Assembly (NCBI GenBank): GCA_038213805.1
Contig: JBBQSO010000013.1
Coordinates: forward strand, 1-64,000
Direction of reading: 5' to 3'
Length of the DNA stretch: 64,000 nt
DNA from: Planctomycetota bacterium
Lineage (GTDB): Bacteria; Planctomycetota; UBA11346
Below, piece after piece: positions 7,338-58,286 of the stretch. Made by a program: the position numbers and the translations under genes. Each line of letters begins with the position of its first letter. Within the stretch, counting starts at the first letter, position 1. The notes under the pieces are model-generated. The model did no database searches, had not been told where the DNA came from, and saw only the letters and a program-made list of their open reading frames with translations.

Positions 7338-7340
7338 GAA

Positions 7341-7466
7341 GTCTCAAGTCTCAAGTCTCGAGCCTCAAGGCTTGAGCCGCGAGCCGCGAGCCGCGAGGGG
7401 ACAACCCCTTGCCTACCGTGTTGACCGGCTTCCCCTCGCACTTCGCACTTCGCACTTCGCACTTCG
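7341..7466. repeat. Mixed heptamer tandem-repeat element (GTCTCAA, GAGCCGC and CTTCGCA arrays) between convergent genes
   Basis: Direct reading of the arrays; inner inverted repeat GCGAGGGGA/TCCCCTCGC. Confidence 0.8.
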
Positions 7467-11171: not shown

Positions 11172-11335
11172 AAGTCCGGAAGTCCGGGGTCCGGAAGTCT
11201 CGACTAATCGTATTTGAACCGGGTCCGCCATTCGTTTCCACCCGAGCGGAACGATGCCGATCCGCCCATGTACAAGATCCATCACATCGTCAGCACGAGA
11301 CTTCCGGACTTCCGGACTTCCGGACTTCCGGACCT
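11172..11335. repeat. Inverted pair of octamer arrays (GGAAGTCC)n...(GGACTTCC)n
   Basis: Arms at 11172-11202 and 11296-11335; inner ends GTCTCG/CGAGAC are also complementary. Confidence 0.9.
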
Positions 11336-25281: not shown

Positions 25282-25486
25282 GGATGGTGGATGGTGGATG
25301 GTGGATGGTGGATGGTGGATGGTGGATGGTGGGTGGTGGGTGGCTGATGGCTGATGGCTGATGGCTGATGGCAGTGCGAACGTCAGTGACGGTGCCGCAC
25401 CTGCCAAAGGAGCCGGCATTGCGGCAGGGCCTTCCACCAGCGTCATGACCTCAGGACTTTCAGCCATCAGCCATCAGCCATCAGCC
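25282..25486. repeat. Heptamer arrays (GGATGGT)n(GGCTGAT)n with inverted (CAGCCAT)n arm
   Basis: Arrays at 25282-25372 and 25461-25486. Confidence 0.9.
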
Positions 25487-32207: not shown

Positions 32208-32340
32208 TCCGGAAGTCCGGAAGTCCGGAAGTCTTCAAGCCCCGGAAGCGCAGCGCGTACGGGGCGCCCCCCTCTCTATGGGTCGCCCGCGACTCCATCC
32301 CACGAGACTCCCGGACTTCCGGACTTCCGGACTTCCGGAC
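32208..32340. repeat. Inverted pair of octamer arrays between sucB and lpdA
   Basis: Arms at 32208-32234 and 32305-32340. Confidence 0.9.
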
Positions 32341-33777: not shown

Positions 33778-33780
33778 ACA

Positions 33781-33816
33781 GTCCGGAAATCCGGAGGTCC
33801 GGAGGTCCGGAAGTCG
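33781..33816. repeat. Single octamer array (GGAAGTCC type)
   Basis: About four degenerate units right after the lpdA stop; no adjacent inverted arm. Confidence 0.8.
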
Positions 33817-38067: not shown

Positions 38068-38093
38068 GACTTCTGGACTTCCGGACCTCCGGA

Positions 38094-38095
<2 letters not shown>
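38068..38095. repeat. Single octamer array (GGACTTCC type)
   Basis: Direct reading, at the stop of the DUF1553 gene. Confidence 0.75.
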
Positions 38096-40307
<2,212 letters not shown>

Positions 40308-40373: not shown

Positions 40374-41231
40374 TCAGGCCGGACGTTCTGAACCGGCGCG
40401 CAGGCGCCACTCGCTGGGCGTGGCGCCCATGGCGCGGCGGAAATGCCGCGCGAAATATTCCGGGTCGCGGTAACCGACACGGCGTGCGACCTGGGCGATG
40501 GTCAGCGAACCTTCGGCGAGCATGCCTGCGGCGCGATCCATGCGTAGCTGGGCCAGGTACTTGAGCGGCGTAGTCCCGAGCGTGCGCTGGAACACCCGAT
40601 TGAGGTGCTGGGGGCTGAAGCCGGCGCGCCTCGCCAGGAATTCCAGCGTCAGCGGCCGGTCGACGTGGTTGCCGATCAGGACCAGCAGCTCCGCGACCAG
40701 CGGATCGGCGACGCCCTGGTCGAGCAGCCCGCGCGCCGCGTTGTCGCGGAACAGCTCGCGCACGATAAGATGCGCCCAGCCCGGGAACATCTGCAGGCGC
40801 TCCTCGCTGCGCGGTCGCGCGAACTCGCCCATGAAGCCGCGGAAGTAGCCATCGAAGCGCGACCCCGGCGGAATGAACTGGTGCGCCGGCGGGCCGAGCA
40901 GACGGAACGCATCCTGGCCGCCGGGCAAGGTCGCCAGCACGTGCAGCGAGCCGAGCGTGACCGCCGGTTCCAGGCAGTACCCGGAGTGCCACACGCCCGG
41001 CGGCACGATGGTCAGCCAGCCCGGCTCGAGCAGCAGCTCGGTGTCCTCGACCACCCACACCACGCGGCCACGGGTGACGTAGATGAAGTTGTAGTCCGGC
41101 ACGGTGCGGTGCTCGAGCGCGTAGTCACGCTCGTGATGCTGCAGCGAGCACAGCTGGGTCACCACGTGCATGGTGCCGAGAATGCGGTCAAGCAGGGCGT
41201 CGATGGGCGAGAGCGCGGGCGGTGTGGGCAT
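40374..41231 (-). CDS. AraC family transcriptional regulator
   Basis: N-terminal cupin; LARRAGFS..HL.R.F; VGYRDPEYFARHF; start uncertain. Confidence 0.92.
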   Translation of the reverse strand: MPTPPALSPIDALLDRILGTMHVVTQLCSLQHHERDYALEHRTVPDYNFIYVTRGRVVWVVEDTELLLEPGWLTIVPPGVWHSGYCLEPAVTLGSLHVLATLPGGQDAFRLLGPPAHQFIPPGSRFDGYFRGFMGEFARPRSEERLQMFPGWAHLIVRELFRDNAARGLLDQGVADPLVAELLVLIGNHVDRPLTLEFLARRAGFSPQHLNRVFQRTLGTTPLKYLAQLRMDRAAGMLAEGSLTIAQVARRVGYRDPEYFARHFRRAMGATPSEWRLRAGSERPA

Positions 41232-41370
41232 GGGGCGGTTCCCGACGCTCAGCATGCTAGCGCGCCCGGAGAAAATGAGGATCGGGGCATGCTGCGCGAC
41301 GTTGTCTTCCCTGGGACAGCGGGCCACTGGCCCGCTGTCCCAGGATGGAGACCTCCTGCGGCGGCGAAGC

Positions 41371-41907
41371 TCAGCGCGGCAGCGCGCGCTCGAGGTAGTG
41401 CAGGCCGTGCACCAGGAAGCTGCTCGCCGGCTGCTTCTCGGTGAGTGTCCAGGCCTCGGCGCGGGTCATGAGTTCGACCTCGATCAGCTCGAGCGCCTCC
41501 AGTGCGCGCGTGCCGGTCGGGGTCAGTCCGGTGGCCAGCACCACGTGCACGGCGTGCCGCAGCAGGCCGGGCAAGGCCTCGTAGCTGCCGAGCAGACGGC
41601 AGGCGCCGGCGCGATAGCCGGTCTCCTCCTCGAGTTCGCGCACGCCCGCGGCGCACGGGTCCTCGCCATGCTCGATGCCGCCAGCCGGAAACTCGTGGAG
41701 CCAGGCACGGTAGGGATGGCGGTAGATGCGTTCGACCACCAGGCGCCCGTCGTCGAGCACCGGCACCACCACCACCGCATCCCATTTCGATTCGACGAAG
41801 GAGTAGGTGTACGCGCCGGTCGGCGTCGTCAGGTCTTCTTCGACGTGGGTGAAGAAGCGGTTGCTGCCGCGCTCACGGCGCGCGGCGATGGGCGGGATGT
41901 GGCTCAC
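41371..41907 (-). CDS. Nudix hydrolase (ADP-ribose pyrophosphatase-like)
   Basis: Nudix box GGIEHGEDPCAAGVRELEEETGY; YRHP..EFPAG; GTG start inferred. Confidence 0.92.
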   Translation of the reverse strand: MSHIPPIAARRERGSNRFFTHVEEDLTTPTGAYTYSFVESKWDAVVVVPVLDDGRLVVERIYRHPYRAWLHEFPAGGIEHGEDPCAAGVRELEEETGYRAGACRLLGSYEALPGLLRHAVHVVLATGLTPTGTRALEALELIEVELMTRAEAWTLTEKQPASSFLVHGLHYLERALPR

Positions 41908-41961
41908 GGGGCCGCCGTCGGCGCCGCTGCGAACCACGGACGCACTTCGCGGCGGCCCCGG

Positions 41962-42091
41962 GTCCGGAAGTCCGGAGGTCCGGAAGTCCGGAAGTCGACA
42001 CCCGCTCGCGCAACGCCGATCCGCAGCACGGGCACCTGCAAACGCGCCAGCGTCCCGACTTCCGGACTCCCGGACCTCCGGACTTCCGGAC
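41962..42091. repeat. Inverted pair of octamer arrays
   Basis: Arms at 41962-41997 and 42056-42091, complementary at 35 of 36 positions. Confidence 0.92.
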
Positions 42092-42097
42092 GTTTCG

Positions 42098-42496
42098 TCA
42101 TGGCAGAGGCAGGAACGGCGTCTGATCAAAACGCTCGTCAAGGTCCTCGTAGACCGCGGTGATCTCGTCGATGGGGATGTAGACGCGGTAGCGGTGCGCC
42201 TCGGCGCCGAACTTGTCGATGGCGTCGGCGAGCAGGATCTCGCGGCGGCCCTCGTTGAATTCGTCCTTCTTGGTGCCCTGGTAGATGCGCCGGCTCATCT
42301 CCGCCGACCAGTGCAGGCAGCGCACCTCGCCGACGATCAGCTCCTTGCGGAATTCCATCAGCTTGAGGATGAAGCGCTCGCCGCGCCGCACGATCACCGT
42401 CGCCACGCGCTGCTGGTCGACCATCGATTCGAGGACCTTGGCCAGGCTCCCCGGGTGGTCGGTGCCCGGCACGATGATCTTCTTGTCCCCGCTCAT
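42098..42496 (-). CDS. Hypothetical protein, possible Sm/Hfq-like fold
   Basis: GGAGG RBS; 132 aa; helix followed by ATVIVRRGERFILKLMEF..LIV and RVYIPIDEITAV. Confidence 0.7.
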   Translation of the reverse strand: MSGDKKIIVPGTDHPGSLAKVLESMVDQQRVATVIVRRGERFILKLMEFRKELIVGEVRCLHWSAEMSRRIYQGTKKDEFNEGRREILLADAIDKFGAEAHRYRVYIPIDEITAVYEDLDERFDQTPFLPLP

Positions 42497-42557
42497 GCGT
42501 CCTCCGCTGAACGCCGTGTCGCGTGCGCGACCCCCGCGACCGGTTTCAGCCGGTCGT

Positions 42558-42594
42558 CGACTTCCGGACTTCCGGACCTCCGCACTTCCGGACC
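42558..42594. repeat. Single octamer array (GGACTTCC type)
   Basis: Direct reading, just after the stop of the HisG-like gene. Confidence 0.8.
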
Positions 42595-42599
42595 CTCCC

Positions 42600-43781
42600 T
42601 CACACCAGCCTCGCGCCAAGCTTCTCGCGCAGCTTCGCGCGCCACGCCGGGGTGTGGTCGGCGTCGGTGACCGGCGCCAGGCACTCGACCAAGCGGCCGA
42701 TGGCGGCGTTGTGGTTGAGACGCTCCTGGTTGACCGCGACGATGGTCTCGGAGGTGATGATCTCATCGCCGACCACGCACAGTTCGGGCATGCACGCCAC
42801 GGTCGAGCCGCTGCGCACGATGTAGATGCCGATGCGGCCCTGTTCGGCGCAGACCTTCTCGATGTCCTTGGGGCCGACCTCGAAGGTGATGCCAAGCGCG
42901 CGCGCGTCGAGTATGCAGGTGTAGAGCTCTTCATACTGCGGGTCGATCAGCACCGGCTGGCCGCGCAGCAGCGCGAGCTTGGGATCGCTGCCGTCGGTGG
43001 CCCAGCGCCGCCCGCCACCCAGGGCCGTGGCCTTGGCCGCGGTGGCGCGGTCCATCAGCACGCAGTGCCCGAGGTAGTCGTCCAGGCCGAGGCTGCCGAG
43101 GATGCGCACGTCGGTGTTGGTCTCGATGAGGTGGCTCTTGAGCTCCTTCCAGTTGCGCACCTTCGGCGTGTCGAGCGCGTCGAGCAGGGTGTTGTGGAAG
43201 GCGTCGTAGCAGGTCAGCGAGAGGTCGCGCTTGTGCTTGCGCAGGTAGGTCGGCGTGACCTCGTGGTCGGTGCCGAGCAGCACCCCGCGCACCGCGCAGG
43301 TCGCGCCCGGCGGGGTGTAGTCGAACTCGAGCTGGTTGAAGACCATGCGGCTGGGTTTTCCCGGCCGCGTCAGGTCGAGCTGCAGGTGCATGCTGAGCGC
43401 CGCCTCGCTGACCTCGTGATCAAGGTCGTAGCGCAGCTTGTTGAGCATCAGCTCGACGCCGCTCTTGCCGGTGTAGTCGAGCTGGGTCTTGCCGGACCCG
43501 TCCTGATAGCGGCGCATGCGCTTGAGCGCCTGGTCAATCTCGTCGAGGTCGTGGCCGAAGCGGTCGGCGGCGCGCATCGTCGATTCGACGGCATAGCCGC
43601 TGCTCTGCCACAGCTGGATGAGACCCTCCTCAAGCTTGACGCGGCGCTTGTCCTCCTTGATCAGACGGCGCAGCGCCGCGACCAGTTCGGGGCGCAGCCA
43701 GCCCAGGGCGACGAGCCGCTTCAGCACATCGTCGAAGCTGCCCCCCTTGGGTGGGATGGCGACCAGCACCGGTTCGGACAT
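42600..43781 (-). CDS. Divergent ATP phosphoribosyltransferase (HisG)-fold protein with large helical insertion
   Basis: Colinear HisG-like blocks VAIPPKG, PTYL...DLSLTCYD, DVRILGSLGL, KDIE, IVRSGST, EIITSETIVAVN; GAGG RBS. Confidence 0.65.
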   Translation of the reverse strand: MSEPVLVAIPPKGGSFDDVLKRLVALGWLRPELVAALRRLIKEDKRRVKLEEGLIQLWQSSGYAVESTMRAADRFGHDLDEIDQALKRMRRYQDGSGKTQLDYTGKSGVELMLNKLRYDLDHEVSEAALSMHLQLDLTRPGKPSRMVFNQLEFDYTPPGATCAVRGVLLGTDHEVTPTYLRKHKRDLSLTCYDAFHNTLLDALDTPKVRNWKELKSHLIETNTDVRILGSLGLDDYLGHCVLMDRATAAKATALGGGRRWATDGSDPKLALLRGQPVLIDPQYEELYTCILDARALGITFEVGPKDIEKVCAEQGRIGIYIVRSGSTVACMPELCVVGDEIITSETIVAVNQERLNHNAAIGRLVECLAPVTDADHTPAWRAKLREKLGARLV

Positions 43782-45520: not shown

Positions 45521-46429
45521 ATGAGCGCGCAATTCGGCACCTGGATCGGCAGCGGCGCGGCAGGCACCTGGAAGCCCCAGATCGATCCCAGCCTGGTCGA
45601 CGATCCGCGCTTCCCCGCCCTGCTGGCGAGCGCCGCCGACGGGGTCTCCTTCGCGGGCGCGGTGGCGCTGGTCACCGGGGCCAGCGACCCCAACTCGATC
45701 GGGTACGCGATCGCCCGCAATCTCGCCAGCGGTGGCGCGAAGGTGGTAATAACCGGCAGTCGCGACCTGCCCCGCATCATCGCCACGGCCGAGCAGCTGG
45801 CGCGCGAGGCCGGCGCCGGCGCGGTGCTGCCGGCGCAGGTCAACCAGGGCGACTTCGCCCAACTCGACGCGCTGCTCGAGCACATCAAGGGCCAGGGCCT
45901 GGCGTTCACGCACCTCTTTCCGTTCGCCGCGGTCAATCACCCCGCATTGTTCGTCGGCATCAAGCCCGAGGACTATGCGCGGGTGTTCTCCGTCAACGTC
46001 TTCGGCGTCTACCATCTGGTCGGCAAACACGCGCGTCAGGCGCCGCGCAGCACGCCGTGGTACGTGGTCGTGCCCCTGTCGCCCAATGACGGCCGCCTGC
46101 AGGGCTCCGGGCTCTACCCGGCGACCAAGCAGGCGCTCATCCCGATCGTCATCCAAGGCCAGAACGAGGTTGGCGACCGCCGCAACGGTCACTACCTGGG
46201 CGTGAGCATCGCCTGGACGCGCTCGGCGCTGATGAGCCAGCTCGATGCCGGCGTCGAAGCCGCCCGCGCCCAGGGGCTGAAGGTCTTCGAGACGCGCGAC
46301 ACCGCCGATGTCTGCACGCTCTGCGGCACCCCCGGCGCGCAGGCGCTCAAGGGCACCACCATCGACGCGGCGGGTGGTTTCGGGAAGGTCGACGCGAAGG
46401 CCATGGGCAAGGTCTTCGCCGCGCACTAG
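45521..46429 (+). CDS. SDR oxidoreductase resembling the fungal/mycobacterial FAS-I ketoreductase domain
   Basis: LVTGAS..SIG, GGAKVVIT.SR, NQG, FPFAA, PLSPN.G, LY...K, I.WTR..LMS. Confidence 0.85.
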   Translation: MSAQFGTWIGSGAAGTWKPQIDPSLVDDPRFPALLASAADGVSFAGAVALVTGASDPNSIGYAIARNLASGGAKVVITGSRDLPRIIATAEQLAREAGAGAVLPAQVNQGDFAQLDALLEHIKGQGLAFTHLFPFAAVNHPALFVGIKPEDYARVFSVNVFGVYHLVGKHARQAPRSTPWYVVVPLSPNDGRLQGSGLYPATKQALIPIVIQGQNEVGDRRNGHYLGVSIAWTRSALMSQLDAGVEAARAQGLKVFETRDTADVCTLCGTPGAQALKGTTIDAAGGFGKVDAKAMGKVFAAH

Positions 46430-57141: not shown

Positions 57142-57166
57142 GGGGTCGGAGTTATAGGGGGGATGC

Positions 57167-57331
57167 GGAGGTCCGGAAGTCCGGGGGTCCGGAAGTCCGG
57201 AAGTCTCGTCTGGCGGCAACTCCGCTGGGACCGACGTCTGCATCCGCAGACCTGCTGCCTGCGCGCTGCCCTCTGATCCACGGCTGGCCGCCGACTTCCG
57301 GACTTCCGGACCCCCGGACTTCCGGACTTCC
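57167..57331. repeat. Inverted pair of octamer arrays in the bioF-pdxJ divergent spacer
   Basis: Arms at 57167-57205 and 57293-57331, complementary at 38 of 39 positions. Confidence 0.93.
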
Positions 57332-58136: not shown

Positions 58137-58149
58137 CTGGTGAAGGTAC

Positions 58150-58286
58150 GGGGTGCGGAGTGCGGAGTGCGGAGTGCGGGAGGAGAGCCAAACCGTTGTA
58201 GCCACATCCGCCTGGAGCGCCCCTGAGAGCGGGAAACAGCCCCTCAAGCCGGCCACTCCGCACTCCGCACTCCGCACCCGCACCCC
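58150..58286. repeat. Inverted pair of heptamer arrays (GGAGTGC)n...(GCACTCC)n
   Basis: Arms at about 58150-58180 and 58254-58286; outer ends GGGGTGCG/CGCACCCC. Confidence 0.9.

Follow-up and report, generated by a model that had tools for sequence, protein, structure and literature searches.

A stretch of 64,000 nucleotides from the Planctomycetota contig JBBQSO010000013.1 (assembly GCA_038213805.1), referred to here as the window, carries on its reverse strand a gene for a 393-aa protein, denoted P0001. The gene lies between that of a HEAT-repeat protein and those of a conserved 132-aa protein and a NUDIX hydrolase (Table 1). P0001 resembles HisG, the ATP phosphoribosyltransferase (ATP-PRT) that catalyzes the committed, feedback-controlled step of histidine synthesis. 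An original prediction, made from the letters of the window, described a remodelled HisG fold with an inserted segment and altered catalytic motifs, and proposed a phosphoribosyltransferase (PRTase) that acts on a different acceptor, or else a sensor without catalytic activity. The present analysis reaches a different function. P0001 is probably the ATP-PRT of its bacterial order, in a third, undescribed architecture, because of its homology and fold, the retained residues of its phosphoribosyl pyrophosphate (PRPP) site, a gap in the histidine pathway, and mutual exclusion with HisG.

A HisG-like protein and its family

The open reading frame (ORF) of P0001 contains no internal stop. Flags reading “1 TGA/TAA/TAG” in the genome profile searches are an artefact, as the protein is shorter than the profile, whose match runs on beyond the natural stop. 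A longer alternative frame opens at GTG 43910. The likely start is ATG 43781, because homologues share an MSEPV or MPEPV N-terminus. The G+C content of the window is ~70%.

A word-indexed search returned 144 homologues. Among the 120 listed, lengths range from 336 to 434 aa (mostly 385–400 aa) and identities from 60 to 96%, and the source is a Planctomycetota metagenome-assembled genome (MAG) in every case bearing a name. The precomputed Pfam accession PF25936, of which the family name was not read, is attached to 119 of these 120 proteins, and the family has therefore already been delimited by someone; the literature searched contains no mention of the accession. When 1.84 billion cluster representatives were searched exhaustively, with no limit on length, just 30 proteins of 67–529 aa reached E <= 0.001, and no long fusion appeared among them. 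The family is small, with a tail of distant members at 25–48% identity. Where these distant members bear a name, their source is either a single further Planctomycetes MAG or Candidatus Woesearchaeota MAGs. An ESM Atlas search with P0001 gave no usable match, phmmer with P0001 alone against PDB sequences gave chance-level matches only (prestin STAS, EspB), and viral contigs scanned with the distant relative P0139 gave none. Scans of P0001 against Pfam and NCBIfam returned 0 families at E <= 1.

Comparison of a 71-sequence family alignment with 13 canonical HisG sequences drawn from other Planctomycetota genomes gave an hhalign probability of 95.8% (E 7.2e-9) across 177 columns, spanning P0001 residues 172–389. 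When a 28-sequence family profile was run against all PDB sequences, ATP-PRTs filled the top five places (E 0.0023–0.32). The resulting alignment pairs the N-terminal “iaiPpKGr” with “vAVPNKGa”, “IdpkY” with “IASKY”, and “yiVrsGstv..gL” with “DVVGSGRTLSQHDL” (“YiVrsGst” with “DVVGSGRT”). Three of 15 distant relatives touch PF01634, the canonical HisG family, on its C-terminal half (1.8e-5, 1.3e-4, and 0.013), the best at 25.1 bits and thus short of the curated cut-off of 25.5; the other 12 have no PF01634 match. The family profile, run over 401 Planctomycetota genomes, weakly cross-matches canonical HisG genes in G284 (2.3e-6) and G218 (4.1e-4), exactly at the PF01634 positions. P0001 belongs to the HisG superfamily by homology, and the likeness is beyond chance. 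With the structural model of P0001 as query, Foldseek places HisG 6fca first (E 2e-7), and the two-lobed core of the model is closer in superposition to solved ATP-PRTs than to other folds, as would be expected of a HisG-superfamily fold. Type II periplasmic solute-binding proteins (OpuBC, ProX, EgtU binding domain) are also among the closest known systems. The block-by-block likeness to HisG on which the original prediction was built is thus borne out by all three of hhalign, the PDB profile search, and Foldseek, and its remodelled HisG fold was right.

The ~160 extra residues of P0001 form three insertions, and a helical C-terminal tail is added to them. The first insertion, of ~100 aa, follows the first strand–helix unit; in the structural model it consists of one long charged helix with three to four shorter ones and a beta hairpin. 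The nearly invariant D44-K45-x-R47...E51 lies in this insertion, which is shorter in distant relatives. This is the charged helical segment, absent from HisG, that had been noticed by eye; two smaller insertions come in addition. In the hhalign comparison the second measures ~23 aa (residues ~198–220) and holds the invariant W211, and the third measures ~20 aa (residues ~255–275). The C-terminal 40 residues are predicted to be helical and include the invariant W380. The ATKY motif had been called lost, which holds in part, as the tyrosine of the corresponding IDPQY (Y283) is nearly invariant in the family.

The residues expected to contact PRPP are those that the family keeps. In the PRPP loop the S-G-x-T is retained as S324-G-S-T327, with G325 and T327 nearly invariant. 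Toward the N-terminus, P10 and G13 of PPKGG are invariant, and this region aligns to “AVPNKGA” of Mycobacterium tuberculosis HisG. From its sequence, P0001 appears to possess a type IV PRT site, composed of an S/T-G-x-T loop, an upstream Glu (E308), and the “GxD” Asp (D193). The arginines R139 and R145 are candidate ligands of pyrophosphate or triphosphate. We infer that the counterpart of R145 is the Arg kept in all aligned canonical HisG sequences (“RSL/RSY”; R32 in the canonical alignment), since hhalign did not span that region. The phosphate loop, E308, D193, and the two arginines are invariant down to 21–30% identity.

A review (PMC3896937) divides ATP-PRTs into two subfamilies: a long form of 280–310 aa with a HisG_C domain, and a short form that is joined by HisZ. 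P0001 fits neither. Short-form HisG_S (Psychrobacter arcticus, Lactococcus lactis, Thermotoga maritima; PF01634), which works with HisZ, has ~205–225 aa, whereas P0001 has 393 aa, being longer by the three insertions and the helical tail. Identity to the short form is 13–16%, the PF01634 match is missing, Tyr replaces the loop Asp and Gly the KGR Arg, and the genome of the window, with a single HisRS-like gene, offers no HisZ partner. Long-form HisG_L is found in Escherichia coli, M. tuberculosis, Campylobacter jejuni, and most Planctomycetota with a his pathway. Unlike it, P0001 has no HisG_C domain by Pfam, and its structural alignments to long-form chains end at chain residues ~204–265, inside the catalytic core. 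In the literature searched on non-canonical or missing HisG, titles and the opening lines of abstracts describe no third form.

The pathway gap and its distribution

The genome of the window (5.5 Mb, 180 contigs, 90.3% complete) has no match to PF01634. It does contain hisD (1.4e-144), hisF, hisA, hisI, and hisB (IGPD), together with a weak match to hisE that is interrupted by a contig end. PF13393 finds only one HisRS-like gene, taken as hisS. Because that gene is single, HisZ appears to be absent from this genome, the one member of the order searched for it, although 90% completeness leaves the absence unproven. The original prediction had proposed a look for canonical hisG or hisZ elsewhere in the genome, and neither was found. 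That P0001 would prove to be the only hisG of its genome was an outcome which the prediction had listed against itself. P0001 is the sole HisG homologue in a genome that otherwise retains the pathway, and its family takes the same place in the surveys of phylum and order below.

Profiles for HisG, HisD, and the P0001 family were run over the same 401 Planctomycetota genomes and cross-tabulated. The PF01634 search finds HisG in 215 of them and in 14 of 14 control genomes. The canonical pathway, with HisG and HisD and without the P0001 family, is represented by 211 genomes, and a further 4 have HisG alone. The P0001 family accompanies HisD in the absence of HisG in 23 genomes, that of the window among them, and one genome (81% complete) has the family with neither HisG nor HisD. 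HisD is present without HisG or the family in 8 genomes (seven 72–90% complete, one 93%). The remaining 154 genomes have none of the three and are apparent auxotrophs. HisG and the P0001 family occur together in 0 of the 401 genomes, whatever the state of HisD, and are mutually exclusive.

The same pattern is seen at the level of lineages. GTDB families without HisG are also without HisD (e.g., 0/16, 0/8, 0/8), with the exception of the window's own family and that of G030. In the window's family, HisG is found in 0/23 genomes, HisD in 22/23, and the P0001 family in 22/23. The window's order consists of this single GTDB family, with 48 genomes in 18 genera. Within these 48, the P0001 family is present in 44, the four genomes without it being 72–81% complete, and PF01634 detects canonical HisG in one. 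G030, from another GTDB family, repeats the pattern: the P0001 family and HisD are present and HisG is absent. Its protein, P0124, shares 45–48% identity with P0001, and its insertion is shorter. As a separate observation, many of the 154 genomes without HisG and HisD are more than 90% complete, which suggests widespread histidine auxotrophy in parts of Planctomycetota.

Neighbouring genes and archaeal relatives

With P0001 alone as query, 14 related loci were retrieved. In each of the 12 loci with sequence beyond the HisG-like gene (the other two end too early), the gene for the 132-aa protein comes next downstream, and several relatives have the pair abutting or overlapping with no spacer. 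The protein has no Pfam or NCBIfam family at E <= 1, has 206 homologues at 76–98% identity, and is possibly an Sm/SH3-like small barrel. In the 401-genome search it is found in 23 of the 24 genomes with the P0001 family, including that of the window, and is missed in G030. Outside these genomes there is a single homologue, in G005 (2.3e-29), which has canonical HisG. For the 23 genomes with both genes, the two are adjacent in 18, unlinked in 4 (three of one genus and G386), and unresolved in 1. On these grounds, namely the unlinked cases, G030, and G005, a strict tie of the 132-aa protein to the HisG-like gene is rejected. A complex prediction of the two proteins gave a score of 0.00 and a mark of 0.32, “no answer”, which by the rule of the method counts neither way. 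Fused longer forms are uninformative, consisting of one 275-aa protein in which half the query is covered. The 132-aa protein is a frequent, unexplained companion, not a demonstrated subunit, and may be an accessory or regulatory partner.

A NUDIX hydrolase gene is found downstream of the 132-aa ORF in L004, L016, L005, and L008, beside it in L043, and further downstream in L012. In G012 the 132-aa gene stays beside the NUDIX gene and the HisG-like gene is on another contig. Because of this linkage, the 132-aa protein may be tied to NUDIX at least as much as to the HisG-like protein. NUDIX as a stand-in for hisE was considered and dropped, given HisE matches that are weak but over the cut-off in genomes of the window's family. 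On the other side of the P0001 gene, a HEAT-repeat gene is upstream in 8 of the 14 related loci, and a gene like that of the short-chain dehydrogenase is conserved upstream, in divergent orientation, in six.

Short repeats are spread between the genes of the window. An 8-mer (TCCGGAAG / GACTTCCG) forms intergenic tandem arrays of 3–5 copies, often as inverted pairs 60–130 bp apart. Such arrays flank the 132-aa ORF and occupy the spacer after the HisG-like gene, and similar paired arrays of 7-mers are also present. The 14-mer TCCGGAAGTCCGGA, at <=1 mismatch, occurs 26 times against 0.02 expected. The arrays look like a genome-wide family of hairpin-forming repeats.

Table 1. Positions of the HisG-like gene, its motifs, and associated features (window coordinates unless a genome or locus is named)
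Feature	Position	Strand	Basis or remark
737-aa protein, by eye planctomycete cytochrome-C/DUF1553-type	38094-40307	-	not Pfam-scanned
AraC-family regulator with cupin domain	40374-41327	-	
NUDIX hydrolase gene, downstream of 132-aa ORF	41371..41950	-	PF00293 E 1.5e-14; start uncertain
Conserved 132-aa protein gene	42098..42496	-	103 bp downstream of P0001 gene
Spacer between HisG-like and 132-aa genes, 103 bp	42497..42599	.	tandem 8-mer array GACTTCCG, 4.4 copies, at 42559-42593
P0001 gene, divergent HisG-like protein, 393 aa, predicted ATP-PRT	42600..43781	-	ORF translation
Y320-I-V-R-S-G-S-T327, counterpart of PRPP loop “D-x-V-x-S/T-G-x-T”	42801..42824	-	residue alignments
E308, invariant; aligns with invariant Glu of canonical “G-x-x-E”	42858..42860	-	hhalign, PDB profile alignment
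D193, invariant; aligns with invariant Asp of canonical “G-I-x-G-x-D”	43203..43205	-	hhalign columns
R139...R145 (“TRPGKPSR”), arginines opening the strand after the insertion	43347..43367	-	invariant in family alignments
Insertion of ~100 aa, residues ~30-130	43392..43694	-	model secondary structure and family alignments
PPKGG, residues P10-G14, after strand 1; counterpart of HisG “P-K-G-R/S/A”	43740..43754	-	family alignments
HEAT-repeat protein gene, upstream of P0001 gene	43920..45374	-	PF13646 E 3.4e-26
Short-chain dehydrogenase or enoyl-ACP-reductase-like protein	45521-46429	+	
8-mer arrays	11172-11333, 32208-32340, 33780-33815, 38068-38095, 41962-42091, 42559-42593, 57166-57331		
Similar paired 7-mer arrays	7339-7466, 25282-25486, 58149-58283		
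NUDIX gene beside 132-aa ORF	L043 3430-4032	-	
Canonical HisG of G422	G422:C331:2727-3218		match 1.8e-43
Gene argS (G030)	L041 725-2470	-	
HisG-like gene of G030	L041 2467-3579	-	
AbrB+ACT regulator, archaeal	L039 7322-7804	-	
HisG-like gene, archaeal	L039 7977-9245	+	
Weakly HisE-like gene, archaeal	L039 9238-9768	+	
AbrB+ACT regulator, archaeal	L038 177-575	-	
HisG-like gene, archaeal	L038 774-1967	+	
Weakly HisE-like gene, archaeal	L038 1964-2542	+	

A metagenome scan with a four-sequence alignment of distant members gave three archaeal loci, two of them (L039 and L038) with downstream DNA. L039 is on a 373-kb contig that also holds split RNA polymerase B, aIF2-gamma, and KaiC-like genes. 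The order of regulator, HisG-like gene, and HisE-like gene is conserved in both loci with downstream DNA. The AbrB+ACT regulator is upstream and divergent, and was recognized in L039 through Pfam and NCBIfam matches and in L038 by reading the sequence, which was not scanned. The downstream gene, encoding 176–192 aa, overlaps or abuts the end of the HisG-like gene, and its products in the two loci share 40% identity. Their HisE matches are PF01503 at 6.6e-4, TIGR03188 at 1.4e-5, and PDB 1yvw at 0.007. Each protein independently points, weakly, to HisE, the phosphoribosyl-ATP (PR-ATP) pyrophosphatase. The link to HisE is a lead, because all scores lie at or below curated cut-offs. As such, the arrangement agrees with PR-ATP chemistry and amino-acid-responsive control.

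Proposed function and its alternatives

If P0001 is an ATP-PRT, its S324-G-S-T327 loop and E308 would bind PRPP in the manner of HisG. In P. arcticus HisG_S, Arg32 and Arg56 are reported to stabilize the departing pyrophosphate (PMC9734150). Judged from aligned ranges rather than a computed residue alignment, Arg32 would be the KGR arginine, which maps to G14, and Arg56 the counterpart of R145. In P0001, R139 and R145, perhaps with the D-K-x-R helix of the insertion, may take over stabilization of the pyrophosphate leaving group, a job that in short-form HisG would fall in part to the KGR arginine. Y320 could stand in for the loop Asp. Feedback control, if any, would come from the insertions, from oligomerization, or from another protein, for which the conserved 132-aa downstream protein is one candidate.

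Several observations weigh against an ATP-PRT role. P0001 itself has no PF01634 or TIGR00070 match even at E <= 1. The replacements of the KGR Arg by Gly (G14) and of the Asp opening the PRPP loop by Tyr (Y320) were read correctly in the original prediction, and two further canonical positions are changed: the Glu following the loop Asp is R323, and the core clade has Cys in place of the Gly of the “GxD” turn. The loop Asp was seen in the 13 Planctomycetota HisG sequences and in the PDB chains aligned, and to our knowledge it is universal in HisG; among the distant relatives of P0001 the position is variable (Y/A/V/S/E/D). The change at G14 is less telling than first supposed, because the canonical Planctomycetota motif reads KGR, KGS, or AGS (KGS/AGS in 8/13) and that of M. 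tuberculosis is KGA. At the level of the genome, neither the window nor any of the 14 related loci has a his gene beside the HisG-like gene, and none of six his families searched is on the window's contig, hisC and hisH not having been searched, in line with the lack of nearby his genes noticed originally. A search for HisE (PF01503) in 31 genomes of the window's family succeeds in only 11, always at a weak 21–26 bits in ORFs of ~110–130 aa, and the HisE of this clade seems to be unusually divergent as well.

The distribution has its own weaknesses. The eight HisD-positive genomes without HisG have no P0001 family either, and in G422 (72% complete, 570 contigs) the family coexists with a canonical HisG, on a contig that may be a mis-bin or a real second gene. 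In G030 the HisG-like gene is followed by argS, with a 4-base overlap at the argS start. In essence two lineages, this order and one further family, supply the phyletic signal; related genomes do not count as independent cases, and the same pattern would be expected of any gene confined to a clade. The P0001 family also occurs in archaeal MAGs, some of them from Woesearchaeota, a group in which amino-acid synthesis is usually missing, so that the wider family may have another role.

A neofunctionalized PRTase, which would join PRPP to another acceptor (nucleotide, RNA, or small molecule) and leave the first histidine step to an unrecognized enzyme, draws on much of the same evidence: the altered canonical positions (Asp to Tyr, Glu to Arg, KGR Arg to Gly), the three large insertions, the lack of a nearby his gene, the Woesearchaeota relatives, and the frequent linkage of the gene to the possible small barrel protein and a NUDIX hydrolase. 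It is nevertheless unlikely. It requires a second unknown enzyme while the sole HisG homologue stands idle, and the residues kept are precisely those for PRPP (S-G-x-T and Glu) along with the “GxD” Asp. KGS and KGA variants are found in working canonical HisG, and the HisE-like gene paired with the archaeal relatives points to PR-ATP itself. The loss of the loop Asp and the KGR Arg, with added helical modules that could serve as interaction surfaces, might instead suggest a pseudoenzyme, a non-catalytic sensor of PRPP or nucleotides on the HisG fold. This is very unlikely, as the phosphate loop, E308, D193, and the arginines would hardly stay invariant in so divergent a family, Pfam finds no DNA-binding or signalling output domain, and the pathway gap would remain unfilled. 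Both functions offered by the original prediction are thus unsupported and probably wrong, the family and canonical HisG co-occurring in none of the 401 genomes.

The least probable alternative is that a canonical hisG is present and was left unassembled or mis-binned, with the P0001 gene an unrelated clade-specific paralogue. All genomes concerned are MAGs, 61–96% complete, and G422 does carry canonical HisG. Such an accident would have to recur, however, in 47 of the 48 genomes of the order where PF01634 was missed, while hisD was found in 22 of the 23 sampled genomes of the family. The same search succeeds in every control genome and in 215 genomes of the phylum, and G012 and G178 are 94–96% complete in 40–120 contigs.

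A broader history can be imagined for the predicted ATP-PRT, although as a whole it is rather improbable. The family would be an old, separate branch of the HisG superfamily, carried as a portable module of HisG-like and HisE-like genes by small-genome archaea and adopted by one bacterial order, where it replaced canonical hisG. Archaeal hosts without a his pathway would use phosphoribosyl-AMP (PR-AMP), or another N-ribosylated nucleotide, for a non-histidine purpose. HisZ or HisG_C would have given way, in Planctomycetota, to a novel regulatory subunit, the Sm-like 132-aa protein.

If the predicted ATP-PRT role of P0001 holds, the enzyme would be a third form that has neither of the two regulatory devices and an altered PRPP loop. 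It would offer a natural experiment in how leaving-group stabilization and allostery can be rebuilt on one core. It would also warn that prototrophy is under-called by PF01634-based pathway reconstruction. For the organisms themselves, it would close the “missing hisG” gap that makes this freshwater Planctomycetota order look histidine-auxotrophic in automated calls.

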